From NCBI GenBank assembly GCA_050273025.1, contig CP158635.1, forward strand, positions 15,500,001 through 15,564,000: a stretch of 64,000 nt of DNA, read 5' to 3'. Shown here in pieces: positions 7,156 to 30,514 of the stretch (position 1 is the stretch's first letter; each line of letters opens with the position of its first letter). The stretch is from Cenococcum geophilum. Taxonomy: Eukaryota. A program made the position numbers and the translations under genes. Under the pieces are notes generated by a model. It was not told where the DNA came from. It did no database searches and saw only the letters and a list, made by a program, of their open reading frames with translations.

Positions 7156-7159
7156 AAGG

Positions 7160-7563
7160 CCCTATAAAGGGAAAATCCTAAGTATTTCCTTTTAGTTAGT
7201 TTTATATATTCTACCTTTACTAAACTAATATATCTTTATATCTTTAGGTCTACCTTATATACTATACTTTTTAGGTATATTAGAAGATCTAGGGGGGGTA
7301 GTAGGAGTATCTAGTAATTTATTAGCGTACTATCTACAGCTAGGCAGCGGTATTTAGTCTCTAAGGGGCTAAAAGGGGTATATCCTTTAGTGTCCTCCTA
7401 TTAGATCTTATATACTATTTAGAACTACTAAAAAACTCCTTAGCCTATAAGCTATATTAATCCTACTTATAGAGAGTATAAGTAATATAATTTATACCTA
7501 TACTAGTAAATAGCTAGTACCTTACTAAGTAGTAGCTATAGAAAAGTAGTATATAGTATACTA
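7160..7563 (-). mobile_element. Tad1-like LINE fragment, left part (continues at 30515-31192)
   Basis: Colinear with 1450-1872. It stops at ATAC-TA and resumes at 30515 with TA-ACTAAATAGG, matching the uninterrupted copy at ~1861-1882. Confidence 0.85.
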
Positions 7564-7619
7564 CATCGGGAAAATATTCGCAGGATGAGATTCAAGTAGA
7601 CTTTGTTTAGCGCGTTTCG

Positions 7620-7875
7620 CGTAATTAATATACAATTGACCAACTTAATATATAACTTGACTAACTTAATACGTAATTGACCAACTTGACATATAACTTA
7701 ACCAACTTAATACGCAATTAACTAACTTAACATTTAACTTAACCAACTTAATACGCAATTAACTAACTTAATATGCAATTGACCAACTTAATATATTTAA
7801 AAGTTAAATAACACGTAGTTGACCTACTTAATAACTTTAAAAGCTAACTGCATATTCCTTAATATGTAATTAAGG
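7620..7875 (+). repeat. Subterminal 21-bp repeats (AACTTAATACGCAATTAACTA-like)
   Basis: About 10 tandem copies. Also present in the second copy at 35447-35710, and the core is inverted near the right end (CAATTGCGTCAA, ~30457). Confidence 0.9.
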
Positions 7876-7969
7876 TAATGTAATATATTATTTTAAAGTT
7901 GTATGCCAATTGCGTAAATGAATTTTTACTATTTTTTTAGCCTGTAGTATGCTAGCTTATAATATATAT

Positions 7970-8298
7970 TATATACAATCTTATATAATCTTATATAATC
8001 TTATATAATTTTATACAATCTTATATAATCTTATATAATTTTATATAATCTTATATAATCTTATATAATCTTATATAATTTTATACAATCTTATATAATC
8101 TTATATAATCTTATATAATTTTATACAATCTTATATAATCTTATATAATCTTATATAATTTTATACAATCTTATATAATCTTATATAATCTTATATAATT
8201 TTATACAATCTTATATAATCTTATATAATCTTATACAATCTTATATAACCTTATATAATCTTATACAATCTTATATAGTCCCATATAGTCTTATATAG
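7970..8298 (+). repeat. 10-bp tandem array (TTATATAATC)n
   Basis: About 33 copies, directly visible. Confidence 0.95.
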
Positions 8299-8339
8299 GT
8301 TTATTATTATATTATATATTACAGGTTCTATACTAGCTT

Positions 8340-11300
8340 AGCTGCTTTTGCTATTTATCCTAGCTTCTATATAATAACGTGATGCGAGTTCCTTCTTTAA
8401 GAAAGTTGTCCGAGTATAGAGTATTATATTAGTCCCAATTAATATAATTATTAATATAGTACAAATCTGGATAAGAAGTAGCGGCTAGAATAATATGCGC
8501 GCTTTATAAAATAGATGGCATTAAATAAAAGCAACTACCTCTAAGTACTTGCCTAGTATTTACGCTTAAACGCGGCTACCTTTTCACCTTAACTATACCG
8601 TATATTAGATGCGGTAGTCTATAATTTAATAGCTAAAGCAGCTCTACTATAGCTCTAGTATACTGTATATATACACCGTACTTATCTAACCTTTTAATAT
8701 CTAGAATAGTAATAATTAGCTAAAGCTGGCCTATAAGTCTTCTACCTAACGGCGTGCGGCCCTTTCTAATACGGTTGCCGTTATCTATATACTCCTAGAC
8801 CTATATATAATCACGCCTCCACTAGTTAAAATATTGCTAATTTAGTGTGCAACATACTACCTCACTAATTTAGCCCTTAAGGTTAGTTGTATTTTTTCCA
8901 TCTCGTTTCTAACAGTAAATAGATGGATATATTTTAATAAGTAGGCGCTTAACCTATAAGGGGTCCTTCTCTTTCTGGTCTATATCGGAGTTCTAGGTAT
9001 ATTTACCTTATAGTTTTCGCCTATACTTTTGGATAAATACCGTAATGCCGTCTAGAAACCCTAGGATTTTGTAGTAGTTTGCTATATAAGATATATAAAG
9101 CCACGTCTTTAACCTAAGACGCCTCTAGATAAGATCTATTGCCCTATTTATATCTTCTAAAGGCTACCGAAGCTTTGCAACTGCTAAATACTATATTAGT
9201 TAAGTAACCTACACCTCTAGATGCTGGGAAGACTGTGGTATAGAATTACTATTTATAAAAGCTATTTCGTCTTCTATTGCTAGTACTACTACCCATCTTA
9301 AATTATAAGAGCAGATTTAAGATAGCGAATCCCGTTTATTTATTAAGTTATAAAACGCCTTAATAATATAATGGTGTCTAGCTTCGCCATTTACGCTAGT
9401 GCAGTACCCATCTACACATCTATATAGGCGGATATTTTCCTTAAAATATACAAGGGCATGGAATTTTGGTATATTAAAATAGCCTATATTAGAATCCTTT
9501 GCCTTTAGACGGAAACTTTAAAACATACCTTTAAGTATATTAATTTGATATAGGGCGTGGTGTATATATTATAGTGTCTCCTTATTATAGGTGTGATACT
9601 AAGCTATAATAACGAAGTTATATACGGCTCTTATAAAATGCATAGCATATAATTCCCTAGATAATAGTAGTGGGGCTAGTATAGCGATAAGTTAACGAAC
9701 TATAGCATTTTATTTATTACCTATCTATTAAGTAACTTTACTAAATAACAGGTTATTAAACCGTTTTAGCCCTATAAAAGCCGGGACTTATTTAAAACGC
9801 TAATTAAGCTAAGCCTCCGCAGACATATTTATTGTAGTTATTTTTATCCCTCTTCTCTTTCTTTTTAGCTAAATAATATCATCTACCAGTTTCCGTACCT
9901 ATTCAATAAGTCGTATAATAATACCCTTTAAAAGCTAATATAGAACATCTACTATTATACCCTTATAGATATTAAATAGGCGATAATGCTATATGAAATA
10001 TTTTACTAGGTATACCCAGTCGTCTAAGGATGGAAGAATATTCTTTAGTTTCTAGCGTTTAATCTATCTTCTTGTCTCCTTATAGGTGCGTAGCGGGTAT
10101 TATTTCTTAATTAAGTTCTCGCGCTTTAGAGGGGGGACTTAGTATATAGTGCAGTGCTGTCGGCTTTTAATACCTGTAAGTAGTATTTATTCTTTATAGT
10201 CTGCCATTATTCTATATATAATTAGATAACATCGTTATATAAAATTATTCGTATATTAAAGGTCTACGCCGCTTTCTATAAGATGCTTAATTGCTATTAT
10301 ATTTTAGTTAATAGAATATAGCGTTAGAATACTAAAGCAGGACTTACGTTTAAATATAGTTCTTATTGCCTTATAATATGCTTTACTTTTTATATTATTA
10401 TCTTTTTCTTTAATAACTGGTATAAAGCTAATAAGGATATTTATGGGGGATATCTATCGGCGCCGAACTTGTTAGTTAAGATTACTAATAGTAAGATATA
10501 CCGGCTAGGCCAATTTATCGCTATAGTATATTATTAGCTAGGTCTTATTAACTGCTATAAGTATAGGAACTACTATAGCACCGCTAGGAAGCTTACCTTA
10601 TATCTCCTACTACCAGTTACCGCTGTATAGCTTATTATAGACTTAGTGGTTTTTGGCATTATAAAGTCTCTTTAGTATATATACCAGTGCATCTTTAAAG
10701 GGTTAATAGCCAATTAGAAAGGTAATTACATTTATAATATCCTAGTAAAGAATATAGTATTCCCTCTACTTAGAGCCTTTAATATACAATTCCACCTTAT
10801 ACTCTAATTGGAGCTATTGTTTGTCTTATATACTAAATAGAATAGCGGTAATTAGTTCTTCCTATTAATTTATAAATTAGAAGCTAAGTAGGCTATAAAG
10901 TAGGCTAAGGTGGGTGTCTTTAAGTAGTGTATTAACGTCTCCCTTTATACAGCGAATGCGGTGCAGCTATATTAAAAAGACGTAATTAAACTCTAAATAA
11001 AAAGGATTATATAGTATACTTTGGCTATTATTGTGTTATAATATGGTAATATCTAAAATTGTCTAGCTAACTTACTATATATTATTATCAGTCTCGCATA
11101 AAATTGGTTTACCCGCCTTTATATTCTTAGTTGCTTTAAATATCTCTACTCTAAGTAATAATAATAACGATATAACGCTTTTCTAATATAGTATACCGTA
11201 TAGAGGCACTAGATAGGCATTCTGCTTATATTTTACCGCCACCGGAGCGTACTTATTGGTATCTATATTTATACTATCTAGTTATAATCGCGCGTTATTT

Positions 11301-11600
11301 AACCAATAAGAGTAGTAGAATTAATCGTGAATTATAAGCAGTCGGGCCGCAATAAATATATAAGTGTTGTATCTTTCTTCGCGTGCTTTTTTATAGACGT
11401 ATTAGTAGCTAGGTAGCCGCCTTTTATAGTACTATAGGTGTTAGTAAAGGCCGCCGTAACTCTTAGGGGTATAAGAACACCATAGATAGCTCTGCTGTAT
11501 TATCGCTAATTATATATTAAATAATATGGTATTATTTCTAGGTGTAAAGAGTACGTATTATAGTACTAACGGTTAATTGCCGGTATTGATTTATATAAGT
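8340..11600 (-). pseudogene. Plavaka transposase (RIP-inactivated, with introns)
   Basis: Minus-strand translation with RIP reverted gives LPSGA.VVPILIAVDKTQL..H.GDKLAWPVYLTIGNL.QQVRRR (~10590-10455) and FNIPKFHALVHFKENIRLYGC.DGYCT...GEAGH (~9479-9372). These are hallmark Plavaka motifs. The 5' end is uncertain. Confidence 0.85.
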
Positions 11601-11657
11601 GGCTTAGCTTTATAGCTGCTAAGAGTATACCTTTTATTTTCTTACTAGAACTAGTTA

Positions 11658-12045
11658 CGCTAAAGTATAAGTATAACTAGCCTAATACTAAGTTTAAGGA
11701 CTTAAAAGAGTCCAAGACAGCTAAAATAGATGCTAAAGCGCAAGTATAACTAGCTTAACACTGAGTTTAAGGACTTAAAAGAGTCTAAGGTAGCTAAACT
11801 AGATACTAAAGTATAAGTATAACTAGCTTAACACCAAGTTTAAGGACTTAAAAGAGTTTAAGGCAGCCGGAATAGACGCTAAAGCGTAAGTATAACCAGC
11901 TTAATACCGAGTTTAAGGACTTAAAAGAGTCTAAGGCAGCCAAACTATACGCTAAAGCGTAAGTGTAACTAGCTTAACACCGAGCTTAACACTAAGTTTA
12001 AGGACTTAAAGAGTCTAAAGTAGTAGAACTAGATACTATAAACTA
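11658..12045 (+). repeat. 73-bp tandem repeat, ~5 copies
   Basis: AAGGACTTAAA recurs at 11696, 11769, 11842, 11915 and 12000. Confidence 0.9.
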
Positions 12046-12069
12046 AAGACTTAATAGTACCTAAAAAAC

Positions 12070-12809
12070 CTTTATCCGTCTAAATAATAATATATAGTAT
12101 TTTTAGGCAATGGCTATAGGACCACAGCTACGGCAAAGATATTATTTACTACTAATATTACAGAGCCCAATGATATTAGCTATCCGGACCTATAAATTCC
12201 GTTATTTCTATATAAGCCGTAGTAAGAAAAAAAGGGAAGATTAAGGGTAGTGCTAGTTAAGTTAAGATAACTAAATAAGTTAGCACTTAGAACTATAATA
12301 TCCGGTCTTAGATATACAAAGTTCTAACTAATATCTAACTTAAGCTGCCGCCTGGAAGTCTTATATTCATTATTAGGGTAACGCTAGAGGGCTAGGCTGG
12401 ATAATGGGTATTAGCAATAATATAGATAATTTAAAGCCCGCGAAGTAATTAAATAGAAAGCCCGTATCTTATAGGCTAACTACTTATCTTTAATAGCTTT
12501 TAAAAGTTTATTTTTAGAATTCCTTTTAATATCTCCGGTTTCCTATTAAACAGATATATTAGCACGAGCCTATATACTACTAGGGTGCGGAAAGCTAAAA
12601 TACAGTTAGAGCTCTTTAAATAATTTGCTAGAAAAGAATAGGTTATTTAGGTTAGCTTATAGATTGGCCAGCTTAACCTTAATATCCTACCCTAGCTTAT
12701 GAAGATTAGGGCTATCTCTACCCGGTATACTACCGTTAATCTATATATTAGTATCTCCCTTATTTATAGCGGCTAAAGAGGCTTTAGGTGTCTAGTCTCT
12801 AGAAGGCAT
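12070..12809 (-). pseudogene. RIP-degraded ORF of unknown function (or 5' exons of the transposase gene)
   Basis: ATG at ~12809 (MPSRD.TPKASLAA...) is followed by coding-like sequence with RIP-type stops and a GCTAAC..AG intron end near 12270-12290. Confidence 0.35.
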
Positions 12810-13322
12810 TATAATATAGCTTTTAAAAGAGCCCACTCCGCGCTAGGGCACTAGACGCTATATTATAGGTAAAGCTTATAGTAGTTATATAAGGCGGGAT
12901 ATATTTCTAAGCAGTATGCGTTTAGAGAAATTAAGGCTAAGGTAAGCTTAACATAGCTATATTTTTAAAGACAAAGAGGCTATAGTATTGGTTTAGGCGG
13001 CCATAAAAGTTTAAAAGATTAAGTAAATAATAGTAGGAAATAGAAGAAAAAGGCGCATAAATAAGAGTACGGTGTTACAGGGCTAGAGTAACAATAGCTA
13101 TATTATAAATAGCTTAATATACAATTCGGACTACGGGACCTATATACAAATAAGTCTAGTGAATATCTTTAATATAAAGCGTAGTAGCTATAAGTGGGAT
13201 CTAGGATACTAGTTTTAGGTTGCCTATATAGTAGATATAACAGCTTATCTAAAAAAAAGTTGCTTTATTAGTAATATAGCTTAAAAATAGGTTATACTTT
13301 AAGTAAAAGGGTATCCTAAAGC

Positions 13323-13757
13323 CTTATCTTACGCTTATAGGATAAAATACCATATTATATTTTACTTTATTTTATACAATCTTAGACTTTTTATAATATC
13401 TTAGATTATCCCCTACCTCTCTCTACTATACACTTTACCTTATCTTGCACTTATGGGATAAAATACTATATTGTATTTCACTTTTTTTTATACAATCTTG
13501 GACCTTTCATAATGTCTTAAATTATCCCCCCGCCTCTCTCTGCTATGTATTTCACCTTACCTTACACTTATAGAATAAAATACTATATTATATTTTACTT
13601 TTTTGTATAATCTTAGACATTTTATAATATCTTGGATTATCCCCCCGCCTCTCTCTACTATGCATTTCACCTTACCTTACGCTTATAGAATAAAATGCTA
13701 TATTATATTTTACTTTTTCGTACAATCTTAGACATTTTTTAATGTCTTAGATTGTCC
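13323..13757 (+). repeat. ~116-bp tandem repeat, ~3.6 copies
   Basis: (G/A)ATAAAAT(A/G)C recurs at 13341, 13457, 13574 and 13689. Confidence 0.9.
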
Positions 13758-14369
13758 CAAACTTATTCCTTTACCTCTTTAGAGCTGCTTCACTAACTAG
13801 TCACAATATAAAGAATAGAATTATTAGCTCTCTTATTATTATATATCTAGTCTAGTTGCTTAAGTATACCTATTAGGACATCCATTATCCTATTTATAAC
13901 TCTTTAGCTTCCTATATAATATATATAATAACTAACATTCTAAGGCTTCTACTATAGATTACACTTATTTTTATATGCCTTACTATTTATATCTTATAAT
14001 TTTATTTACTTAGTTAGCAGCGCAAATCTTATATCTTATCTTACCACACACCTTTCATTCCGTTTCTTACTCTAAGTCTTATATTTCGTTCTACTGCCCA
14101 TATTAAAGCTTATATCTTATCCTACTTCTTACATTAAGACTCGTATTCTGTTCTATTTCTTATATTACTCTTATATTACTCTTATTAGAATCAGCTATTA
14201 TCTTAAGTTAACACTATTAACATACCTTCTCATTATAACTATTAGGATTATCTTATTAGATTATTACTAATTATCTAATATATTATCCGCTCCACTGTCT
14301 TTATAAGTTACTCTATACTATTCTATATAAAACTTTCACCCGCTTATAAATATATAGGGTCCTTAACTA

Positions 14370-17300
14370 TAATAGCAGCGCCATACCTAGACTCTAGTTG
14401 GTATTTAACTACTATAACTAATAAGAACTTATTATAAATAAGTGGTCTAAAGCTATAGTAAGGACTTGCGATTAACGAAAAAACATATAAAGAAATCCTC
14501 TAATACTATGCTAGCAAAATTAACGAAGCGTCTAGCGGTAGGTTGCTAGTATCCAGGCCTATACAAAATAGAGTTAAGCGTATAATCTTTAACCTTCTTA
14601 ATACTAAGTATAGGCACGTATTTAGGAGATCTAATCTACCATTAGAGTTTAAAGCTTTCGCTATCGCTGCTAAAAAATCTATATAGCGACACGTAATAAC
14701 TAATAGACGTAGAGGCGTAGAGGTTATAATAGCTAATATTATTTTAAAGTATAGCGGCTTATCTTCTAGAGAGCAGTCTGTTAACTTATCTAGATTAAGG
14801 GCAGCCTCTAAGGCTGCCTAGGTGCTTAGTAGTCTATCTATTAAAGTCCCACAACAGCTAAATACTACACCTATACTATTCTATGAAATGAGCTTTACTA
14901 TATATAGTTACCTAGACAAAACGCCATTAAATAGGGCCCCCATTCTATACTGATTTGCATTAAAAACTAAGTATAAGCATCTATTATCCAATTCTCCAGA
15001 GAAAGTTAATATATATTACTATAGATATAATAAGCTATAGGCCGCGATAAGTATAAACTTCTTGGCGGATAAATATAGGGATGGCTGGGCTATAGTAGAT
15101 CTAACCACCGGTATACTAATTCTTAACTATATAAACCTAGCATTTACAGTACTTTCTGCAAAGAAGGCTAGACTTAATATAATTATAATTAGAGTTAAAA
15201 ATCCTAATCGGATTATAAAGCGTAAGAGACTTTATAACTTATATAAAATTGTATAATATTATATAGAATTGTCTAACGTACGTTTATAGGTATAAAATTT
15301 AATAAAAGTACTTCTAAGTCCGACTCTAACCCTAATATTACACAACCGGTACTAACTAGGAGAAGAATAGGCATACCTGCCCTAGGTTGAAGTAGTTATA
15401 AGCAATCAATTTTAGAGTCCACGCTACCTATATCTAAGCAGTCAAATCCAAAGCCTATATTAACCCTAAAGTCCACGCTATCTATACCTAAGCAGTTAAA
15501 TCCAAAGCCCACATTAACCCTAAAGTCCACGCCACCTATACCTAAGCAGTTAAATCCAAAGCCTATATTAACCCCAAAGTCTACGCCACCTATACCTACT
15601 AGTGCATTATTAGCCGTATAACTGGCTATAATTAAAACTGCTCATAGCTAGACCCGTAGTAGTAAAGACCAGCCCCTACTAGATAAATTAAAGCTCTTAA
15701 AAGGCGTAGATCTAAATAAAGTATAAATATTTAAGATAATGCTATAGGATAAGATAAAAGGATAGTATAATAAATAGCTAAAGTCTAATCGCGAAATGTT
15801 TATTAATATATTATTTAAGGATATAAATAATAACCCTAACCTAATTTATATTAGGGAAATTAATCTTAACCGCATATAGGAGCGCCGCCACTTTAACGCC
15901 TTAATTAACCCTATTTCGACTAATAAGGAACTAGAAGATAAGCATAAGGATAGAATTAAGGAGGTTAATTAGGAAGTTAATTACCTAAAGGACGTATAAG
16001 AAGCATATATCAACCTAATATTATAGGTAAAGGCGCTACAGTTCCTCTTATTTCCGTTAACTATTCACAACACTCTTTAAGACGCAACCTTCTACTTATA
16101 CGGCATAAAAAAGGGTAAAGCTATATAGATATATTAGCTGCTTAGTATTACCTATACTCTTCGTAATTATACAGCCCTAGGTAGGACCTTTCTCGCGGAT
16201 ACGATGGGTTTAGGTAAGACACTTTAAATACTCTTAATCTAGTACACCAGCGTGTTAATAACTAAGATTAACCTTAACTAGCTTAATTGGATAAATTAAG
16301 AAGGTAGAGATAAAAGTCTCTACTTTACCCCTAATATAGATAAATACCCACAGCCGCCTAACGCCCAATACCCGAGTTAAATAGATAGCATGCTATAGTG
16401 CTATTATATTAAGGGAAGTATTACCAGAAAATTTCTTTACTGGCTAGTAGGACTAACTATATACATTACTAGATAGAATCTACTGCCCTAAGCGGTTAAA
16501 GACGTCAAATTATAGTTTAAAACCTCAGAACTAAATGATTATATTCCTAGAGGCAAACTATAAGTTCGCGTACGCCATTCGGCTTTTATTAGGTCTAGTA
16601 TAAAAAAGTACAATTTTACAGATAAAGATAAAGACATTCTTAAACCTATAAAATGCAAAAGAGAAGGTAAGAAGGTCTAGTGGAAAATAGACCTAAGATC
16701 GGCTTCGTATCATATAATTATAATATTATAAACTTAGGTAATAACCTAGACTGCTTAGGAATAGTATAAGACTATTTTTAATCTCTATAAAGACGGTAGT
16801 CCTCGTTATATCGTTAGTAAGATTCTTGCCGATAAGTTCTATATAGATAGGTTAGAGATAGGTTATCTAATAAAAATGGCCAAATAAGTATACAATAATT
16901 AAGTAGTATTTCCTCGCTTCTAACGCCCGGGCCTATCTTATAAGGACGGCAATAGTAAAATAGCCTACTATACCTCTCGACCTTTAGTAGTGTTTACTTC
17001 TAGTACACTAACTAGCGAAGGTTTTACAAGTCTAATTCCCGCCTTAGAAATTTTTAGGGCCCCCTAATTAGGCGGATTTCACAAATATAAAATTAATTAA
17101 TAATCGCAATATTAAAGCATTAATTAAATATAAAAAGCTAAGAGTAGCTAATTACTCTTCTCTTCCAAACAAGGTTATTACGGGCTTTAAAAAATGCTCC
17201 TCTTTAATTATAAAGATCTTAATTATATATAGGATAGGGAAAGACTAATGGTTTAATAGGAGGGTGATTAATAAGCTACTACTAGTCGTCTACTAAGACT

Positions 17301-18290
17301 GCTATATAACGAACGATTTAATATTCAAACTGTATATTAATAAGCTCTGGTATAGAGCATCCTTAAATTCTTTTAAATAGCTAAATAAAGCTTTTAAACA
17401 CTAGAAAGCTAAAGGAAGAAAAGAAGAAAAACCCGTCTTTAATATAGATTAATTTCTAAAGGGAGCCGGTTACTTATTAAAAATTTTTACTATCTTTCTA
17501 GGCCTGGCTAAGGTAGGAGATAAGTAGTAAGATGTGTAGTAGAAGGATAAGGTAAAAGTTAGAACAAAGCTAAAGTAGACAGTTAATAAGTTTCGCAGTA
17601 AAAAATAGGATAAACCTTTAGACAAGAATTTGCTTTAGAGGAATTAGAGTATAATTACTAACTCTAGAAAACTAAAGCTAATTATAAAATACGTTAATAA
17701 AGTACTTAAAAGGAATCCTAATAAGAGACTACTGTTTAGTAGTTATAAACTAGCAGCATATACGCTATTACGCCTTATAAGTTAGCTATTAGACTAATAG
17801 TAAACTGTTACTAATAATATAATATAGTATTTCTATAAAAGGCTTAGCCAGTCTAAATATTTAACTATTTACTAGATAGAGTTTAGGATATCCCTAAAGG
17901 ACTAAAAAGATATCTATAAAGCGTTTTATATTCTAATAGGCAGTCCTTACTAAAATAATATAGTCTAGTTTCTTATTATTAACCAAAGGGTTAGAGGAGA
18001 GGGTCTAAATTTAGTCTCTATATATAGAGTCCATCTGCTTAAACCGGCGACAACGGTAAATATAAAAGTATAAGTATTTGGCCGGGCTACTAGATCTAGA
18101 CAGTTAGCGCCAGCAGTTACTATATTAATAACGTATAGTATAGATAGGTGGAACCTAATTAATATAGTTATGTTAGCGAGGCGTACAATAACTAAAAGGA
18201 TAACAATTAATAAGTTCTATAAGGTGTTTAAAACCCAACCTACTTAGCAGGCTAATAATAATATAATGGAAATAGCGTAGCTAGTATAGT
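14370..18290 (+). pseudogene. SNF2-family (SF2) helicase/ATPase cargo gene, RIP-inactivated
   Basis: Motif I G.TFLADTMGLGKTL (~16180-16224), motif II ILAD(E)F(H) (~16822-16842), motif III FTS(G)T(P) (~16993), motif V GEGLNL (~17996) and motif VI QVFGRATRS(G)Q (~18071-18103). Introns near 15278-15360 and 17777-17828. It is uncertain whether 14370-15270 belongs to the same gene. Confidence 0.8.
15417..15600 (+). repeat. 54-bp (18-codon) tandem repeat, ~3.4 copies
   Basis: GTCCACG/GTCTACG at 15417, 15471, 15525 and 15579. Reads SPRH..(P)SSQIQSPHQPQ with RIP reverted. Confidence 0.85.
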
Positions 18291-18408
18291 CGGAGCAGTG
18301 ATCCCCTATAATAAGAGTGTGTCTTAGTATAATATATATATATATAGATAATATACCACTATTTAATATTGTGTAATATATTATCTTAGTTTTAACCACT
18401 ATATAAAA

Positions 18409-20710: not shown

Positions 20711-20899
20711 TAAAAAGTTTGAATTTAGTCTGGATTAATATTACTTTAGCTACCAACTACTTCGACACCTATTAAGTAATCCAGCCTACTAACTTTCGTT
20801 CCTATATACATAAATAATTCCTATTAAGGTATATCCTCTCTACTAATAGATTATATATATATATTATCTTTATTATTCTAAAAGCCTAATCAATACGTA

Positions 20900-21937
20900 A
20901 GAGGATCCTCCCGTTAGTAATGGTTTTTAAAATCTTACTATCCTATATAAAAACTTTTCACTACTAATGATTACCAGCTCCCACCCGCATGCTATATAAT
21001 GTCTATATAAAATCCCTAACGGCGAAGAAAAGCGTACCCTAATTATTCTATTTAATCTACCTCCTACCTTTTTCTATAGGTATAAGATATCGAATTAACC
21101 TATAATATAATGCTAACTAGAATAATTGGTAAACCTAGCTCCGTCAGATAAATATGCTTAATAATAAGGACCGAAACCCCATTACTATTAAGCCTATTAT
21201 ACTTTAAAACGAAAGGGCTATTATTAATATTAGTACGTTTTAAACGCACTTTATTAGCTAGCACTAATAGATATAGGTTAATAGGCTACCTACTACTTCG
21301 TATTTAACGGTTCTAAAAATAATAGGGTAAAACATGCTATTATTTATTGTGCTCTTACCAATTATAATAATTAATTCATTATAGGCTAGAAACTTAGCCT
21401 TAGATAAGTAAAAGGCAGACTTTTAGGATATATTAGATATATTATAGACGAAACCTTTATATAGCCTACCCGTATTAAAATACCTTAATAGCAGTACTAT
21501 ACTATTGGATTTCGCTATTAGGCATTAGAGTAACTAAGCAACCTTAAGTCTTCCCCTTATTACCTAACCCTAAGCCTTATCACGTCGCTAAGACTCTTAT
21601 ATTATTAAGTTTCATTATATTACTAAGTATTATTACATTGCCACTAAGCCTTATTACGTCGCCAAGCCTTATTATATTATTAAGTCTTATTACATTACTA
21701 AGTCTTATTATATCGCCATTAAGCCTTATTATTTCACTAAGCCTTATTATATTGTTAAATCTCATTACGCTACCAAGTCTTATTGCATCGCCGTTAAGCC
21801 TTATTATATCACTAAGCCTTATTATATTATTAAGTCTTATTACGTTACCAAGTCTCATTGCATCGCCATTAAGCCTTATTACGTCATCAAGCCCTATTAC
21901 ATTACCGCCGAGCCTCCTAGCCAGATTAGGCAATTAG
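20900..21937 (+). pseudogene. RIP-degraded cargo ORF of unknown function ending in SPSLIT-like repeats
   Basis: Two plus-strand GT..CTAA(C/T)..AG introns (~21080-21120, ~21234-21270), coding-like sequence, then 18/21-bp repeats. Confidence 0.4.
21572..21915 (+). repeat. 18/21-bp tandem repeats (AAGCCTTATTACGTCGCC-like)
   Basis: About 17 units, directly visible. Confidence 0.9.
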
Positions 21938-23104
21938 ACGTTACGAGTGCGACTCCTAAGCATAGCGGGTTCGATTCCCACTTATCACGCATTAAAAATA
22001 TTAAAAAAGAAGGTCATTTCCTATTAAATTAGGCGTTAGTAAGGCTCCAAATTAAGCTTATATTTTCGTACATATCTTATAACGCCTAAAGTCATACATT
22101 TAATGAAATTTTAGCACTATATACTAAGCATATCGGCTCTTTTACGCCAAGTTTTAATTACGTTAGGCTAGCTCTAAATCAAAGCATAAGGTAAAACATA
22201 CTATACCACTACGCTATAAGGACTTTAGAATATAATCTTATAAATTTAACTAAATTATAACCCCTTTTTAAACCTTACAATCAAACCAGATCCTTAGGGA
22301 GAGATCCCTATATTAAATCTTAGGGAACGTTTGGTAGCGACTTTAGATTAAATCTAAAGGCCCTAGAATATATCCGATCTAAAGCTTAAATCTAATTCTA
22401 ACGTAATCGTTTAGTTAATCTAGCGACTTTCTAATCTAAAAGCTCCTCTAGATTAGCAAGCGCGTTAAATTTATAAGCTATACCATATATAGAATCTAAA
22501 CTAAGGTTTTAGCGTTAGTTTAAATTAGGAGCTTAAAGCTTATCTAAAGCCTTATAGAAGGATTAACTTAATTTTAGATTTTAGATTTTAGTAAGTAGTT
22601 AATCTACTATAGTCCAAAATCTTAATTATTAGAAATTTGGGGTGTCTTTGCCACCACAATAGCAAAGGCACCTTAAGTTTAATACCACGCTAAGCATTAC
22701 AACTTTCCTACAGTAACTAAGCAATTATAGAACTTACCATACCACTGCCCGTAAAGGCCCTTAGTTATAGTCTTATGAATTTAATTAAAATATAAACACC
22801 TTCCTAAATCTCACAATTAAATATTTTTACGTATAGCACTATGCCAAGATCACGATACAGATTGCTTAGATATAGCTTTACTACAATATAACGGCTCTAC
22901 GCTAATCGATTAATCTACGGCTCTAAAATCTAAATCTATAATACTAAAAATAAGCTCTAAGCTACTGATTTTATATTAGCAGAACGAAACTTAGTAAGAG
23001 ATTTAAGCAGTAAAATTACTACTAAGAGTTACTGCCCGGATCCTAGCCAATAAATACCTATAACTATAATCTTAGTAAATAGCAAAAAGTATATAGCAGT
23101 ACTA

Positions 23105-23420
23105 AGACAATAGTAGGACAATATAAAACAATAATAGGACAATATAATATAATGGTAGAATAATGGCAAAACAATATAATATAATAGTAGGATAATAATA
23201 GGACAATATAACACAATAGTAGGGTAATGATAGGATAATATAACACAATAGCAGGACAATGACAGGACAATATAACATAATAGTAGGACAATAATAGAAC
23301 AATATAGTATAATAGCAGGATAATAGTAGGATAATGTAATATAATAGCGGGACAATAGTAGGACAATATAGGATAATATAACATAATAGTAGGACAATAG
23401 CAGGATAATATAAGATAATA
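23105..23420 (+). repeat. Degenerate 10-21-bp tandem array (AGGACAATATAACACAATAGC-like)
   Basis: Directly visible. It accounts for the Y/C/L-rich minus-strand ORFs in the track. Confidence 0.9.
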
Positions 23421-23489
23421 TAAAAACGTAAAATATAAAATATAAAAAGAGGGAGCCCTAATACTTCCTCTTCTTCCTACCCCTACGGC

Positions 23490-24700
23490 CCTAGCGCCCA
23501 ATGTAGTGTAATATCGTCTATTCGTATAAGTGATAGTATTAAGACGGTTACTTTAAGTAATATGCCTAGATAACTAGTCTAGCGCATGGTTTATATAATA
23601 TGTAATAATAATAGGGGGATCTCCTATTATTATATTGCTAAGCAACGCCTTTAAAGCTATGTTTTTCTAGTGCTTAGAGGTTCTTAGATTATTATAAGAC
23701 GCTTTATAAGAACTCGTTTTAGCGCAGTAGCTTTAAGCCCCATAGTAGTTATATCTAGCTAGTCTTTAAGAATATAAATATTCTTAAATAAGGAAGCATC
23801 CTTAATAGCTATAATTGAGCTAAGATCCGTATAAGGCTTATTTATAACGTATTGTGGTGCTTTAATATTCTGTTAAACTTAAATAAGGTGTTCTAATAAC
23901 GGGAATCTATTAATAGTTAGATATCTTCTTATTTAGAAAATATCGCACACTTACAGCTCTCTTATTAGCTTTTATAATGCTAATATAGTGTAGCGACTAA
24001 CTTCGTAAAATTTAGTTCGTTCCTTAACTATTGTCTATAATACGGATAAGTTAATCTTAATCTCTTTAGGTCTTAAAGAATAAGTTAACCTTTAGAGGAT
24101 TCTGTTTTAATACGGCTAATAGTCTCGCCGCCGCTATTACGAGTATATATTTCGTTTAAAAAATATTAATCTTAGGAGTTAAAGCAACTAGAGACCTAGC
24201 AACTAATCTTTTTAACTAATCCTAACAGATCATCTTCCCTACTCTCTTAAGTAAGAACGCCACGCGGATTACTAGCCCTTAAGGTAAAAAATATTACTAA
24301 GCTAATATGGGCCTTATAGATATTAGGGGATAACTACTTTAGAATTATAGTATGCTTACCTATTTATATATACCAATTCCATTACTATATCCAGATTTTA
24401 GCAAACTAAAAGGGTCTGCTCTAATTTAACCCACTACTTCTCTTAACAGTTTAATTATATCTTCTTTTAAAAGATTATACTAAGAGCTTAGATACTCCTT
24501 TATTAAGCCAGACGGACCTAAGACTTGTTAACTTATAGTAGAATATCTCCGTTTTCGCTAATAATATTCTGGCCCTTATTAGGGATATTAAGTATTTTGG
24601 CGGAGGTTAGGACCTCTAATTATGCTAACTAGGCTTTACTAGTTAAGGGCTAACTAGGCGTTTTAAAGTATTAATAAATATAGTTACTAGTACATATTAA
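23490..24700 (-). pseudogene. sad-3: N-terminal fragment of SAD-3/Hrr1 (ZNFX1-like SF1 RNAi helicase), two introns, RIPed
   Basis: With RIP reverted: RVGKMIC(W)D(QS)KRLVA(G)SLVALTP (~24240-24175), AAAR(P)LAVLKQNP(P)KV(D)LFF, MV(E)ERT.FYE.SRYT.LAL(Q)KL.RE, FPLLEHL, Walker A KRL.II(QG)P(PG)T(G)KT (23704-23660) and ALKALL.N...GDPPIII....NHALD(Q)L (~23660-23570). GTAAG..AG introns at 24359-24313 and 23954-23907. Confidence 0.8.
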
Positions 24701-25072
24701 GCTACCTAGAAGGGATTTATATATATAGAACTATAGCGCTATAGCCTAGAGGCTGTATACGTAGTATTATACGTAGTATAATATAATAGAGATTAAAAAA
24801 AATTTATATATATATATATAAAAAGTATTAACAAATCTGGGTGCTAAATCGAGCTTATTAAGACAGAGGAGACGTAAAATAAATAGGAGGAGGCTTATAA
24901 GTCTAGGTAGTATAGTGGGTAAAAAAGCATTTATTAATACGCTTATTTATTTCTTATAAAATATTTAACTAATTATTTTATATATAACTAAATAATATAG
25001 TTACTATCTACACAATCCTGTATATCGGTCTTAGCACGTAATTAAGACGTCTTTCCTACTGTACCTCCCCTA

Positions 25073-25812
25073 ATGCTTTTAGAATTATAGCACTAATAAT
25101 AAACCTAAGCTATAACACCAAAGACACTCTTAAGCGAGATCTTAGGGTTATAAATAAACAATACAATACGATCTACTATAATATTAAAATTAAAATGTCG
25201 ATGTACAGGCTCCTTAGATAGCCACTACGCTCCCTTATAAGTAAGGTATAAATACGGCAAATATTAAACAAAATCTCTAATAAATTCCTATTTGTATTTT
25301 TAGGTTTACCTAAAAATTTATATACTAAATATATTAAACAACTTGCCTAGCGCTGTAGCTATAACGCGACGCGTTAAATAAATAAAACGGCTTCTATTAG
25401 GCAAATTATAACAGGTAACCCAGTACTCCCATACTCCGCTATTACGCATTATCTACTAGCCGGCATACTAAAGGCAATAAGGTAGGAGGGAACACTAAGG
25501 TTATATAGGATAATAATAATACTAATTCAGCGGGCAGCTAATAAAGAGCTAATAATTATCCTAACCCAAAAGCTAGCGACCGGTAAGAATAACGCCCTAA
25601 ATATACACGTTAATAATCTAAGCTTTAATATATTTATAGATATACTAGGCTAGGATATTAACTTTAACCCTAAGAGCGAAACACTTTACTACTACATTGG
25701 CAATAAAATAGCCAAAGGACGAATTCAGCTTATAAACGAAGAGAAATGGCGTAGTGCGGTTAAGGATATATTTCTACAAGAAATAGATAGGTTTTTATTT
25801 ATAATAGAATAA
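25073..25812 (+). pseudogene. RIP-degraded cargo ORF, unknown function
   Basis: Long coding-like frame ending ...GRIQLINEEKWRSAVKDIFLQEIDRFLFIIE*. The stops are RIP-type. Confidence 0.5.
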
Positions 25813-26399
25813 AGAAGAATAAGTAGGTTACTACTTAAAGTTAATTCAGCGTTACTAACTCGTATTTATAGTCTGCGCTGCTAGCCAAAAATAATATAAT
25901 TACTTACCCTCCATTTCCGCACCCTTACCTTTACTAGACAACTCGCACTCTATATATATAAAAATAGGTAGAATAGGTAAACGGGTCAATACTAAGGTAA
26001 TACTTAACCTATAGCCATCCCAAAAAACCTCTCCTAGTTAAAAAAGAGCCCTCACTCTACGCCTTAACCCGTAATAGAAAAGGCGAAGGTAACTATAACC
26101 GCAGTATAGATTATACGCCTTAAAGCCACTGCTTTATTTGGAATACTTACTAGTTTAATAGATTACCATATATAAAGGTAGACGGCTTAATATTAGAGCC
26201 CTTCGGCGTGCTATTAGGCGAGGGAGTCTTAGAATAATATATCCTAGGATATTCTTATAACTTATCTAGCATTCTTAAAACGCCTAAGGGGATTAGATAA
26301 TAAAGCCTAAGGTTTATACCTATTCTTTTTAGTAAACTTATTAGGGTAATATATGTTAACACTGTCCCTAGCTTACTCTTAGTATCCAACATCTAATTT

Positions 26400-27100
26400 T
26401 TATATCTATGCTTACGCTTTCCTTACTATTCTACTAAATTTAATTGCTGTTGCGATATATATATAGGGGATAAGTTAGGCTTACTATAGGCTAGCGGGGT
26501 TAACGACACGGAAGAATAACGTTAGATATTTGCGGTAGAAATACTAGGTGTTGCATAAGGGTGTGGAATATGGCGATATAACTATATAGAAGTGTTATTG
26601 CTGTCCTATATGCCGCCTATGCCTACCCTAGCATTATCTACACTGGTAAGCTATACGGATAAGGTAGATAAGCTTTGCTTTAAGTATAAGACAAGTATTA
26701 AACCTAGTATAGGTGGACCGGAATAAGGTATAGGATCTAAAAGCCGGCGCCCTAGGTAGGTAAAGTAGTTTAATAAGGTACCTCCCTATTAAATTTAGAC
26801 ACGAGCCTTACTAGCCTACTGCTTTTATTGCTAGGATTAACATTTAACTTTTCGTATACCTATACTATATCTGCTAAGGGATATGCTAATAGAATAAAAT
26901 AGTTTCGCGTATAATAGCAAATAGTATTAGACAATCTTTAACTATATAATAATATTTTCTTAACTACTAACTTAACGCGAGTTAATAGGTCGCGGTCGCG
27001 GCTTAACCGCAACCGGTTAGAACTAGCAGCTAATTATAACAAATACACCCCTATTTAAGTTATTTGCAAGCACTATAGTAATAATACTCCTATTAATACT
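26400..27100 (-). pseudogene. RIP-degraded cargo ORF, unknown function
   Basis: Coding-like frame SRDRDLLTRVKLVV.K...KDC.ILFAIIRETILFY... followed by a P/S/Q-rich tract. Confidence 0.4.
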
Positions 27101-27601
27101 GCTATCAGTCTAATATATACTATACTAGTATACATTCTTTTAAGTTGTTAATCTATATACGCCCTAAACATTATAGAAACAGCTATAAGGTAACCTATTT
27201 TAGCTATAAGCTGTACCTTTTACTAACCAGGCAAATATAGGAGTGTTACTATAGTAGGTAAACGTAAAAACGCGTTATTAAATACTTAAACTAGTAGTAA
27301 GAACCCTACTTTAAGTTAACGTATAATAAGGAAATAAGGATAACTGGTATAATTAACCTTATATCTCTACCTAGCCTACTACTGGGAGTTGCCCACGTCT
27401 TAGCTAATAAAAGGAAAAACGCGCTAACGGAGAATAAGTATATAGAACCTAGCTAGAACGAGCACGTAGAACCTAGCTAGAATAAGCAATATTATAACTT
27501 TAGTCTAGTTATATCTAGGCGCGGAGAGGAGCAGGCACGTAATAGACCCTATTAACGTTATATATAATATATTAAGCTGGCTAACAATATATAGAATGTA
27601 C

Positions 27602-28800
27602 ATGGCCGCCTCTAGCTAAAAAGGGTAATCTCTAATAATAAGGATAGTGACTGCGAGTCTATACCTACTTCTTTTACAAAACGATAGCGACCAAATATTA
27701 ATTAATCTACTAAATCTGTTAATGATCTGGTAGTAGAACCAGCTTAGTTAAAGACGCGAAGTCCTAATCTTTTAGTTAAGGTAGGTTATACCTTTATACA
27801 TAACCGGAGTCTAACTATAATATTTAATAGTCTCCTCTACTATTTAGTACTTAATGGGCCTTAGTAAATAGAACACTCTTTTTACTATCTAACCGCCAAC
27901 CGCTATAAAAAGCAGCATCTTTATAATATACCTCCGGCTCTTAATAATTGCGTATTGGTTTAAAATACTCTTTTACGCGTCTAATCCGTACCTTACCGCG
28001 TAAACAATTGCGTGCTAGTTTAAAATACTCTTACGCGCGCCCAATCTATACCTTATCGCGTAAACAACCAATATTTGGCTTTATATTCTCCCTAGTAAGC
28101 TATATCCGCCTAAACCCTAACATAGCTTCGTCTATAAGATAAGTAACCTCCCTCTAATATAGAGTACACTAACCTAGTATTTAATCTAAAGGGGACCTAA
28201 ATAGCGCTAGGGAAAGTAAGGACGAGTTAGACTATAAAGACGATTTTAACCTAACTACCGCGCTACGGGCAAGAGAAGAGTACCTCTGGATATTATAACG
28301 GCGATATATAAAAGAAAACCCACCTAAGAGATATGAGCCTATATTTGCGCTTTATAGGTCTATTTTACTAGTAAGGCTAATAACTAACTCTAGGACTTAT
28401 AATAGGCATCTTATTAACCTATAGTTCGACCGCTTTCTAGGCCTTATTAAGGATATAATAAAAAAGGCATAATTAGAAGCCATTTTAAAGTAGCTAAAAG
28501 TAGTATAAAAAAAAGCTAATCGTATTCCTAACCCGGTGTCCGCTCATAAGGTATCTATATACTAGAAATATTATATTAAATTATCTACTAATAATCTTAA
28601 TATTATATATAGCTATTTAACGCAATAGGGAACTTTAGGAACTACGTAATTACGAAGGCTTATATAATTATAAGGGAGGTATTATTATGCCTAAGCCCAA
28701 CCCACTCGACCATACAAACCACCAAAAAGGTAGCAGCAGTGTCTCGCGACTGGACGGGCTGCCGGTTGGAATGTCTTATAAGCTCTCCAGCCCATACGTA
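27602..28800 (+). pseudogene. RIP-degraded cargo ORF, unknown function
   Basis: ATG at 27602 and coding-like frames (RAREEYLWIL.RR..KENPP.RYEPIFAL..) with RIP-type stops. Confidence 0.4.
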
Positions 28801-28949
28801 ACGTATGGGTAGCGCAAGGCATGACAGGTATATAGGCTAGGGTTTAACGACGCGCCCGAACTAATTATAGAACTACTAACTAATTATAATTTTATTACAC
28901 TAGATTACACAAAGGTATTTTGCCTATACTATTTAGTAAAATACTAATA

Positions 28950-29956
28950 AGAGTTAATAGCTAAGTAATAACCGCTTCCGTTCCGACGTAATAGTTACTA
29001 GTATAGCTAGTATATTTTACGGTAGAGGAAGGAACGGCCTTACCCGATTACCTTACTCTTATAATATATTTAAAAAGCTTACCAGTAATACTATTACTTT
29101 TGTTTTAACAGCAATATATTATATAATTAGGGAGTATAGAACTAGGTCTAAGGAAACGGACAACTTTTATAGCACTATTATTAGTGGTTAGTATATATCC
29201 GGTGTTTTACTACCTATTATTATTCTCTAACCCGTTGTAGAAGCCTATACTAACCTCTTAGGCGGCTAAAACCAGATGTCTAGAAAACGGCAATCTAAAA
29301 TCTAGCTATGGCTTTAGCCTATAGTTATTAAACATGCTATAGGCCTAATGCCGGATTAATTAACTATAGAAATTATTAAGGACCCGTATAAAGATGACCT
29401 TAACGACCTTATAGCGGATCTAAGCAATAATATAAGAGAGAGGTTCCTCGCAAGCCTTAGCAATAACGAAACTAACGCGATTATTAACTTAGGCTATTTA
29501 TTAGTAAGCTAGGCTATACTATCTAATCTACTAAGTCTGTCTTAAAGGGAGAGCTCTAGAGTAGGCCAGACTAGTCCACTAAATCCGTCTTAAAGGGAGA
29601 GCTCTAGAGTAAGCTAGAAAATCTAGGGCCCTACTACTACTATAATATTTGCTAATTTAACTTTTAAAACTAGCTAAGTTTGTTAGATTTAGCAGAATAT
29701 ATATCCTCCGCCCTAGTGTATTACTTTATCCTAAATATAGGAACCGGCGAGCCTAGGCTAAAAAGGTTTAAATCTAATAAGTTATTTATATAATTTAAGC
29801 AGTACTACAGCCTTATAGAGGACAGCTATAGCTAGTATAGTAATGGGAAAGCAATATTAAATTTAATTAAGAATAAGGAGTAGTATATAAAGTTTATAAT
29901 ATATACTCTGGACTCTAGTATAGAGGAGCCGGTAGAGTTTTTAGTAGGAGATTAGG
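28950..29956 (+). pseudogene. RIP-degraded cargo ORF, unknown function
   Basis: Coding-like frames PYKDDLNDLIADLS...ERFLASL and ...TLDSS.EEPVEFLVGD*. Contains a ~51-bp internal duplication at 29525-29615. Confidence 0.4.
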
Positions 29957-30339
29957 TGTAGGACTTTCTATACTCTCCTATAGGATAACTGCGGCTTCTT
30001 TATTGTATATACTAGCTCTTAATCTACCTTTCTTTCGGCCTATATCTACTACTCTTAGTAGCTACTTTTTGGCTATATATATATGCTATACTAGTAAAGC
30101 TAAATACTTATATTATATTATTGTCGCAGGGAGAGCAGGAAAGGTCTTATAATTTTAGAATATATTATAAAACAGTTAGAATATTATATTAAATTATCTA
30201 AAATAATATATTAGATTATATAAGGAAGTGTATACAATTTGCCTTACTAGCCTTATAAATAGCTTTAAAGTAGCCTTTTTTTATTATCTAAAATATACTG
30301 TTGGTACAAAAGAGGTAGATGGCTCCAAATACAATTATG

Positions 30340-30398
30340 GTTGCAGGTTGCGTGCAGGTTACGTACAGGTTGCGCGCAGGCTACGCGCAGGCTGCGTG
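30340..30398 (+). repeat. Right subterminal 11-bp repeats (GCAGGTTGCGT) of the Plavaka element
   Basis: 5-6 tandem copies about 120 bp from the right terminus. Confidence 0.85.
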
Positions 30399-30514
30399 TC
30401 AAAAAAACACAACATAGGCTAGTCGGTCGGGTTGCCAAATGCCCTCAACTGCGCGCCAATTGCGTCAACCACCAACCATTGAGGCCATTGGAAGGGTACC
30501 ATATTTTGCCAATA

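Follow-up and report, generated by a model that had tools for sequence, protein, structure and literature searches.

A RIP-degraded 23-kb Plavaka transposon with an SNF2-like ATPase gene in the fungus Cenococcum geophilum

How can 23 kb of DNA in a filamentous fungus, which bear a transposase relic at one end together with relics of further genes and blocks of tandem repeats, be explained: as one large transposon with genes of its own, as a carrier of passively captured genes, or as an assembly of unrelated elements? The locus lies in a stretch of 64,000 nucleotides of Cenococcum geophilum (contig CP158635.1), which as a whole is called the window here, and an earlier note had interpreted it as a giant, gene-carrying Plavaka transposon with defined ends. 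Plavaka, a relative of CACTA/EnSpm, is a lineage of DDE cut-and-paste transposons. The Starships of Pezizomycotina are described as giant transposons mobilising many diverse cargo genes, and they are moved by a tyrosine-recombinase captain encoded by a gene at one end.

The extent of the element is defined by the following features:
7562 to 7563: left TA of the target duplication (only one TA in the three paralogues that lack the insertion)
7564 to 7577, plus strand: left terminal inverted repeat, CATCGGGAAAATAT (found at the exact end of 32 other copies, whose flanks are unrelated)
7625 to 7795: left subterminal repeat array with a 20/41-bp unit (putative transposase-binding repeats)
30342 to 30398: right subterminal repeat array with an 11-bp unit and ACGCA-type motifs (repeat and motif analysis)
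30501 to 30514, minus strand: right terminal inverted repeat, its minus strand reading TATTGGCAAAATAT (exact boundary also at L011:20746)
30515 to 30516: right copy of the target duplication, TA (a single TA in the uninterrupted paralogues)

Positions 7564 to 30514 are a single insertion of 22,951 bp. The joined flanks align over the junction with three other copies of the host repeat, a putative LINE (6946..6602, 1656..1905 and 5308..4916), and each alignment shows a 2-base gap if both TAs are kept, so that the insertion was accompanied by a 2-bp TA duplication; the duplication that had been deduced from an uninterrupted copy is thus confirmed by three paralogues with exactly one TA. A specific preference for TA was not borne out, as TA stands beside the left terminus in only 11 of 32 other copies. 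The 14-bp inverted repeats are present as claimed and agree in 11 of 14 bases; of the three mismatches, two are G>A. At fixed positions such a match has a probability of about 7e-5 by composition, and 5 of 127,972 window positions reach it in an empirical count. A search of the whole window allowing up to three mismatches returned 5 matches against 5.7 expected and no further site of this kind inside the element; the repeats count only because they lie exactly at boundaries which were defined independently. The left end reads CATCG and the right end, on the minus strand, TATTG, which is consistent with a CATCG changed by repeat-induced point mutation (RIP), while the published PlavakaB motif CATCA..TGATG agrees with the terminus of the element in 4 of 5 bases (PMC12730594). 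Subterminal arrays were found at both ends, as described in the earlier note; motifs resembling ACGCA(A/G)TTG occur at both in inverted orientation, and the left array probably consists of transposase-binding repeats.

The enzyme that would act on these ends is represented by one relic at the left end:
8336 to 11557, minus strand: Plavaka transposase relic of about 1,040 codons (PF18759, mapping of P0002, distant Plavaka proteins)

The transposase, which had been placed at one end of the element, is full length, full of RIP stops and reads towards the left end, with its PF18759 core at about 9917-10771. The profile check that had been proposed gave 118.2 bits (5.9e-34), where the cut-off is 26.3; the query was the raw translation of 9000-10801 on the minus strand, masked with X, and the match spans profile positions 40-317 of 325. 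The intact relative P0002, which contains a C-x-x-C shortly after its MADYEE stretch, maps from 10234 to 8354 as one ungapped HSP of 627 residues with 68% identity. On the family consensus, distant but intact Plavaka proteins cover 11517-8380, corresponding to about 1,040 codons; this consensus follows a permissive rule by which any C or G wins and was checked only against P0002 (93% identity) and P0023 (86%). The assignment to the Plavaka DNA transposons is supported by the PF18759 score, the 2-bp duplication and termini close to those of PlavakaB. No tyrosine-recombinase domain was found in the Pfam scans, outside of which lie most minus-strand frames of 10800-22700, and no TET/JBP domain was found in the parts of the element that were scanned.

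Does the long interior belong to the same unit? Six tandem-repeat blocks were located between 7972 and 23420, in agreement with the earlier description, along with one nested insertion; a second family member lies further downstream in the window:
7972 to 8297: tandem array of a 10-bp unit (32.6 copies), separating the transposase stop from the terminus
11657 to 11989: 73-bp tandem array, its copy number varying among other copies
13322 to 13758: 115-bp tandem array (tandem-repeat search)
15416 to 15598: 54-bp tandem array encoding the Pro-rich N-terminus of the SNF2-like protein
18400 to 20713: nested Tc1/mariner-like insertion in this copy only (boundaries about +/-20 bp)
21571 to 21904: 75-bp tandem array (tandem-repeat search)
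23130 to 23420: 32/96-bp tandem array abutting the helicase fragment
35390 to 40495, plus strand: second, truncated copy of the same Plavaka family, from the left terminus to just upstream of the transposase core

For comparison we used 77 metagenome loci with flanks of up to 10 kb, 41 of which are more distant, non-family loci. The left terminus is found in the 36 related loci, in 32 of them at the exact base and beside unrelated flanks, and the right terminus at the exact base in one other locus (L011), so that the proposed search for both termini recovered the left end widely and the right end once. The loci cover positions 8014-10514 in 33-36 of 77 cases, the stretch to 18399 in 19-29, 19014-20514 in none and 21014-22514 in 11-15; collinearity over 7564-18399 and 20714-22321 extends to 11-29 other copies, and in one of them, L020, it continues to 26579. 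No second end-to-end copy was found among these loci, whose flanks reach at most 10 kb. The segment 26580-30246 could be aligned in the window only, and its membership in the family rests on contig coverage: 22000-30558 is covered throughout in all four sequencing runs by many RIP-diverged contigs, with 5-39 distinct contigs per listed variant place and differences that are almost all transitions, a coverage which is no copy number. Contigs of 21,121 and 20,152 bp, close to the family unit in length, combine intact open reading frames of the transposase and the SNF2-like gene.

The 2.3-kb nested insertion is absent from every other copy spanning the site and contains a DDE_3 relic at about 19451-19828 on the minus strand (25.7 bits, under the cut-off of 28.6; E=1.2e-5). 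This copy thus owes its 22,951 bp to the later arrival of a Tc1-like element at 18400-20713, and as only this segment is private to it, the family unit comprises about 20.6 kb. Of the first copy, only 7569-10988 recurs in the second one in the window, which is interrupted by a 1.7-kb LTR-like insert (37285-38995). RIP degradation is present in all copies examined: C>T rates are 0.61 at CpA, 0.46 at CpG, 0.11 at CpC and 0.12 at CpT, and 37,899 transitions stand against 832 transversions among the copies.

Which genes does the unit contain besides the transposase? The earlier note had counted about eight further gene relics, of which only three, an SNF2-like gene, a fragment similar to Hrr1/ZNFX1 and DUF6532, were recognised in addition to the nested Tc1-like relic:
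15349 to 17782, plus strand: SNF2-family ATPase relic, exon 1 (P0013/P0023, 65-66% identity)
17840 to 18277, plus strand: SNF2-family ATPase relic, probable exon 2, C-terminal lobe with motifs V/VI (family consensus, local only)
23559 to 24527, minus strand: Hrr1/ZNFX1-type SF1 helicase fragment (ZNFX1, PF25396, 30.5 bits against a cut-off of 27)
28919 to 29194, plus strand: DUF6532 domain relic (32 bits against a cut-off of 24), reading towards the right terminus

Judged from its sequence, the SNF2-like gene is complete but divergent, and it is present in 22 close loci. Exon 1 encodes a Pro-rich N-terminus, motif I (LADTMGLGKT) and motif II (DEFH), and in this copy the gene is frameshifted near 17064. 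In the un-RIPed intact relatives P0013 and P0023 the Pfam domain SNF2-rel_dom scores 21.2 and 20.7 bits, both under the cut-off of 24.9, and the raw window translation has no SNF2-rel_dom match in Pfam, whereas 16 of the 18 longer distant relatives scanned exceed the cut-off; the SNF2 assignment of the protein of the element rests on transitive and profile homology. In alignment A1 the ATPase motifs I (GxGKT), II (DExH) and III are conserved, with G281, G283, K284, T285, D488, E489, H491, T546 and P547 invariant. The divergent ATPase has a Cys/His insertion between motifs I and II. The A1 profile matches 89 solved SNF2 remodeller chains, among them ISW1 (1.3e-37) and RAD5 (4.3e-36), its best-scoring stretches coming from the lobe that the distant sequences in A1 supply. 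In the family consensus, which is local here, motifs V/VI can be made out; Helicase_C reaches 25.7 bits in L033:2-340 (cut-off 23.5), and among eight raw copies one matches at a non-significant E=0.038. Genes of the same subfamily adjoin Plavaka transposases in 4 of the 41 non-family loci, representing three lineages (L048/L049, 1.7e-100; L033, 2.3e-26; L032, 3e-10), and these transposases share only 37-47% identity with P0002. Relative to the transposase, the SNF2-like gene differs in position and strand among L048, L033, L032 and this family. Such differing arrangements are also the outcome expected from repeated capture.

The helicase fragment comprises only residues of about 57-414, while the references measure about 1,170-1,260 residues. 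It is the same N-terminal third in the window, in L020 and in the consensus, none of which contains an AAA_11/AAA_12 helicase core beside the ZNFX1 domain, and its closest relatives are from Pezizomycotina. As the earlier note had stated of its cargos, both recognisable accessory sequences belong to chromatin or silencing families, namely SNF2 and the Hrr1/ZNFX1 helicases of RNAi-directed heterochromatin. In L043, L044 and L046, loci of one further lineage, DUF6532 lies upstream of the Plavaka transposase in divergent orientation, which suggests that it is a regular partner of the transposase, and it is probably the second core gene of the element. Since SNF2-like genes and DUF6532 occur beside other Plavaka transposases, they look like recurrent partners rather than random cargo, and the terms accessory or core gene suit them better than that of cargo captured in the manner of Starships.

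Taken together, the locus is very probably one dead copy of a large, autonomous-type Plavaka transposon with a unit of about 20.6 kb and accessory genes. In the host, a RIP-proficient soil or root fungus and probably a pezizomycotine, the transposase would bind the 14-bp termini and the ACGCA(A/G)TTG-type subterminal repeats, and the whole unit would be excised and reinserted via a 2-base staggered cut. The ATPase may be an accessory factor of this Plavaka clade rather than a passenger, and it might open chromatin at the donor or target site or counteract silencing, a role that would parallel that of TET/JBP in basidiomycete Plavaka and of the methylase/SET and oxygenase genes in the giant Plavaka of red algae. 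A burst of near-identical copies would then have been followed by RIP, and since RIP mutated all copies examined, none of them is functional.

Two readings that dispense with a standing 20-kb family were weighed against this transposon. The 23 kb might be a composite in which the termini of two Plavaka copies flank unrelated DNA, either mobilised once as a macro-transposon or with termini merely juxtaposed; only two right termini, those of the window and L011, are at hand, no other copy was followed end to end, and the second copy in the window stops short of most of the interior. We nevertheless regard a composite as very unlikely: its interior would not be collinear in 11-29 copies at different sites, in L020 even to 26579, the contigs of four runs, diverged by RIP, would not give even cover as far as the right terminus, and 20-21 kb contigs would not combine both intact open reading frames; moreover, there is no internal terminus-like site, and the alignment with the empty site reveals a single insertion bearing a single 2-bp duplication. 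RIP regions rich in AT are usually transposon nests, and a small Plavaka could have been swollen by later, unrelated transposons that now pass for cargo, as the insert with its DDE_3 relic and the LTR-like insert of the second copy illustrate. Apart from 18400-20713, however, all comparable segments keep the same order in other copies, the rest of the interior has no match elsewhere in the window, and among the loci compared it matches only collinear copies, so that this reading is the least credible of all. These comparisons support an interior that was not stacked up from nested elements and that, over its long extent, is part of the Plavaka unit.

A different question is what the SNF2-like gene does within that unit. 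It could be ordinary captured cargo, a host gene that is carried passively and has no role in transposition or silencing. Capture does happen in this element, as its truncated, clearly captured helicase fragment demonstrates, the placement of the SNF2-like gene varies among the four lineages, and TET/JBP has been described as passively transferred between transposon lineages (PMC12730594). Against this stand a gene that is complete and conserved in all 19-24 copies spanning it and intact in un-RIPed relatives, its membership in a rare and divergent subfamily (96 matches among 1.84 billion representatives), and the recurrence of this subfamily beside strongly diverged transposases; passive carriage therefore appears rather unlikely. 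That the Plavaka clade instead depends on its own SNF2 motor, a dedicated cofactor for transposition or against silencing that co-evolved with the transposase across lineages of 37-47% identity, is possible and is put forward tentatively. If true, a eukaryotic DDE transposon would bring its own chromatin remodeller, and because intact relatives exist (P0002, P0013, P0023 and the L048 open reading frames), the help of the remodeller in mobility or escape from silencing is directly testable.

The locus adds evidence that large gene-carrying mobile units of filamentous fungi are not only Starships, it documents a DDE transposon of about 20 kb that reached dozens of copies before it was killed by RIP, and it links Plavaka to an SNF2-family ATPase. 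With Starships, as they are described, it shares the format of a large mobile unit in filamentous ascomycetes with genes besides the mobilising enzyme, and it differs from them by its DDE transposase, 14-bp inverted termini, 2-bp duplication and fixed small gene set. Plant En/Spm (CACTA) likewise encodes more than one protein, begins with CA at its short termini, bears repeat arrays in both subterminal regions and makes a small target duplication, but its transposase belongs to another Pfam family, its termini read CACTA, its duplication measures 3 bp and it is not known to carry an SNF2-like gene.

PlavakaB, in an account that reconstructed Plavaka only from Agaricomycotina, has a 2-3 bp target duplication and termini of 5'-CATC...GATG-3' and may carry TET/JBP (PMC12730594). 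The present element resembles it in its PF18759-type transposase, 2-bp duplication, CATC...GATG-type termini and chromatin-related accessory gene; by contrast, its fifth terminal base is G instead of A, its accessory gene encodes an SNF2-family ATPase instead of TET/JBP (in the parts scanned), RIP at CpA/CpG is strong in its host, and its helicase fragment has its best relatives in Pezizomycotina. The giant Plavaka described from the red alga Bostrychia measure 17.4-19.1 kb, contain tandem arrays and carry accessory genes of chromatin type, encoding PAG1 (unknown), PAG2 (N6-adenine methylase and SET) and PAG3 (ParB-like and 2OG oxygenase) (10.1101/2025.02.11.637652). They share with our element a size of about 20 kb, a DDE transposase with several accessory genes, internal tandem arrays and many degenerate copies, whereas the host kingdom, the inactivation by RIP and the gene set (SNF2-like ATPase, DUF6532 and helicase fragment instead of PAG1-PAG3) differ. 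The idea of a giant, DDE-driven, gene-carrying element is therefore supported but less new in kind than the earlier note had assumed; new, with respect to these descriptions, is the SNF2-carrying variant. With TET/JBP in mushrooms, methylase/SET and oxygenase in red algae and SNF2 here, the Plavaka lineage seems to acquire chromatin- and DNA-modification enzymes repeatedly. Plavaka consensus elements are also described from the Chinese white truffle, likewise an ascomycete, with 2-bp duplications and short inverted termini as well, but with the terminal motif 5'-CATAC-3' (PMC12581995) where the present element has CATCG.

The stretch from 7564 to 30514 is a copy, killed by RIP, of a Plavaka family with a unit of about 20.6 kb that carries a SNF2-like accessory gene. 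The earlier note had described a giant cargo-carrying Plavaka element, and this observation proved largely right and its interpretation is supported; what could not be confirmed are its "about 8" further gene relics, since three were recognised (SNF2-like, Hrr1/ZNFX1-like and DUF6532) and no further Pfam domains were detected in the remaining element chunks scanned. The features are as follows.

7564–30514: Plavaka element, 22,951 bp
10234–8354, minus strand: transposase relic, as aligned with the intact Plavaka transposase ORF P0002
15349–17782, plus strand: SNF2-like ATPase gene
17840–18277, plus strand: likely second exon of the SNF2-like gene
18400–20713: nested insert, 2,314 bp
24527–23559, minus strand: Hrr1/ZNFX1-like helicase fragment
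28919–29194, plus strand: DUF6532
35390–40495: second Plavaka copy, sharing only the left 3.4 kb of the element

With a GC content of about 0.3 the window is AT-rich, and positions 7000–31500 contain no long open frames. The left end of the element, CATCGGGAAAATAT, is directly preceded by TA, and the right end, ...ATATTTTGCCAATA, is directly followed by TA. Compared as inverted repeats, the two ends share 11 of 14 positions, with G>A accounting for two of the three mismatches. End-like matches with up to three mismatches are unremarkable across the window (5 versus 5.7 expected), while an 11/14 match at a fixed position has a probability of about 7e-5, and the positions of the ends were fixed independently, so that the 14-bp terminal inverted repeats claimed from the sequence hold at this level of agreement. 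The joined flanks align unbroken to three further copies (6946..6602, 1656..1905 and 5308..4916) of the host repeat into which the element inserted, and all three show a 2-base gap if both TAs are kept. The 22,951 bases are therefore a single insertion with a 2-bp duplication, and the TA duplication already proposed is borne out by the single TA in the three uninterrupted copies. Within the flanking host-repeat sequence (1437–7563 and 30515–31192) no frame is conspicuous for a low number of stops. The host repeat at 6730–7563 matches its own reverse complement (86% over 834 bases), which makes it an inverted duplication in head-to-head arrangement with its centre near 7146; the Plavaka copy lies within one arm. 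The right flank contains a 12/24-bp tandem array (31287–31500) whose summed contig depth is very high in each of the four runs.

The earlier note had also placed a transposase at one end and suggested a check with the Plavaka profile, which matched near the left end at 9000–10801 on the minus strand (PF18759; 5.9e-34, 118 bits versus a Pfam cut-off of 26.3). For these Pfam searches relic translations were used with stops written as X and in chunks of 150–700 residues, and shorter chunks were needed because long translations (four frames, about 3,800 residues) gave no domain. P0002, a 629-residue ORF named Plavaka transposase in its source, is 67% identical to the relic in a word-indexed search and aligns with it without gaps in a single alignment, and more distant intact Plavaka ORFs (from loci L032 and L033) stretch the gene to about 11517–8380 on the family consensus, or about 1,040 codons. 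The relic is full length yet full of stops. In the pile-up of copies, C>T occurs at 0.61 of CpA, 0.46 of CpG and 0.11–0.12 of CpC/CpT sites, and 37,899 transitions are opposed to 832 transversions; C>T mainly at CpA and CpG and transitions far above transversions constitute a RIP signature. An ORF of 180 codons mapping to the element occurs in none of the 36 close loci. A local de-RIP consensus, used only for placing genes, shares 93% identity with P0002 and 86% with P0023, an intact relative of the SNF2-like gene.

Whether the interior belongs to the element was addressed with metagenome contigs scanned with P0002, which yielded 77 loci including 36 close copies of the family. In the search for the termini in relatives, as the earlier note had proposed, the left terminus was recovered at the exact base in 32 close loci with unrelated flanks, and the right terminus at the exact boundary in only one other locus (L011:20746; 83% identity over 268 bases, followed by an expanded tandem array). 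The dinucleotide adjoining the left terminus is TA in 11 of the 32 loci, which means that TA is no required target. Element positions 8014–10514 are covered by 33–36 loci and those onward to 18399 by 19–29, no locus covers 19014–20514, and 11–15 loci cover 21014–22514; since loci were bounded by a 10-kb flank, coverage of copies stops near 22514. The absence of other loci at 19014–20514, with cover resuming after it, marks the nested insert as private to the window copy, and subtracting its 2,314 bp from 22,951 gives the unit of about 20.6 kb. L020, a copy with an internal deletion, is collinear from 26579 to 7564, and 21,121-bp and 20,152-bp contigs carry intact transposase and SNF2-like ORFs recorded jointly (P0002/P0014 and P0013/P0021). 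The region 22000–30558 is fully covered by many short contigs in four runs (5–39 distinct contigs at each variant place listed), whose differences are almost entirely transitions (1,328 transition versus 47 transversion places in run X1); this contig coverage is indirect evidence that 26580–30246 is part of the family. Loose contig ends at 30514/30515 were absent among the matches listed, so no right-end junctions were added. A window search found no terminus-like sites inside the element, and BLAST of 29900–30514 found no second right end within the window. At 24536–24852 the summed contig depth is about 10x that of the neighbours in all four runs, which, together with the flagging of 24792–24830 as a repeat, indicates a short high-copy segment within the element. 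In L019, L020 and L024 the segment equivalent to window positions 11836–12547 has the opposite orientation to that of the window copy and adjoins the 73-bp tandem array.

The SNF2-like gene, found in 22 close loci, is 65–66% identical to the intact relatives P0013 (691 aa; source name "SNF2-related domain") and P0023 (804 aa), and its window copy contains a frameshift near 17064. The P0013 and P0023 ORFs stop at the start of SNF2 block IV and the family consensus at 17840–18277 holds motifs V and VI, which makes a second exon likely from sequence. The protein itself remains below the Pfam cut-off (20.7 versus 24.9 bits), Helicase_C matched one of eight raw exon-2 translations below cut-off and without significance, and a phmmer search of solved structures with P0013 found no match. 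The profile of A1, an alignment of the subfamily with fully conserved motifs I, II and III, matched 89 SNF2 remodellers among solved structures, with ISW1 best (1.3e-37). SNF2-rel_dom lies above its cut-off in 16 of the 18 longer distant relatives scanned, and the subfamily is small, with only 96 relatives among 1.84 billion representatives. Sub-threshold Pfam matches to MgtE_N, YqiM and AraR_C were regarded as noise. Between ATPase motifs I and II, A1 contains an invariant His and three Cys (P0023 positions 319–347), which may form a metal-binding insertion.

The Hrr1/ZNFX1-like piece matches the ZNFX1 domain (30.5 bits versus 27) and 27 pezizomycotine Hrr1-type helicases, and this match spans only residues ~57–414 of the ~1,170–1,260 in the references. 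Its partial extent is the same in the window, L020 and the consensus, which identifies it as a fragment, and no close intact relative was found among proteins of 550–1,750 residues. DUF6532 scores 32 bits versus a Pfam cut-off of 24. In the 41 non-family loci, 210 ORFs reach a length of 140 residues or more, of which 60 were run against Pfam, plus 10 in a separate scan. According to the A1 profile, 4 of these 41 loci have SNF2-like ORFs beside their Plavaka transposases: upstream of the transposase on the same strand in L048 (1.7e-100; no Pfam domain in its SNF2-like ORFs) and its near-twin L049, in L033 (2.3e-26, with Helicase_C above the Pfam cut-off), and downstream on the opposite strand in L032 (3e-10), with transposases only 37–47% identical to P0002. 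Among the 60 of 210 ORFs scanned, DUF6532 lies upstream of the transposase and divergent from it in L043, L044 and L046, which represent one lineage; in the window element both genes are also divergent, with about 17 kb between them. DUF6532 is also listed with Plavaka, KDZ and CxC2 domains in a paper on Ganoderma (PMC8955403). We read the transposase and DUF6532 as the core of the element, the SNF2-like ATPase as an accessory gene that recurs within one Plavaka clade, and the helicase piece as a captured fragment; any function of the ATPase in the element is putative. Some distant Plavaka copies have other transposases nearby, namely MULE (L043:5997–7838), KDZ (L060:2992–3528) and a pogo-like DDE_1 with HTH domains (L050:43–1431), so these metagenome contigs are also transposon nests.

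In published work, PlavakaB generates 2–3-bp duplications and has termini CATCA..TGATG (PMC12730594, where Plavaka is reconstructed only from Agaricomycotina), truffle Plavaka generates 2-bp duplications (PMC12581995), and red-algal giant Plavaka, at 17.4–19.1 kb, contain three chromatin-type accessory genes and tandem arrays (10.1101/2025.02.11.637652). Supplements of the cited papers aside, we found no literature tying SNF2 to Plavaka, KDZ, Kyakuja, Zisupton or EnSpm, and none on giant fungal transposons with SNF2 cargo.

The nested insert contains a Tc1-like DDE_3 relic (E=1.2e-5, under the Pfam cut-off) and a 140-base inverted repeat (18438–18578 / 19060–19198, 89% identical). The second Plavaka copy is truncated and has no recognisable right end within 35390–40495; about 170 of its bases (40150–40318) are missing from the first copy, where 10812–10818 overlaps both sides. 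It also contains a 1.7-kb insert at 37285–38995 (GC 0.44–0.47), whose direct terminal repeats measure 193 bp and are 98.4% identical; the insert has the look of a small LTR-type element, young and un-RIPed.
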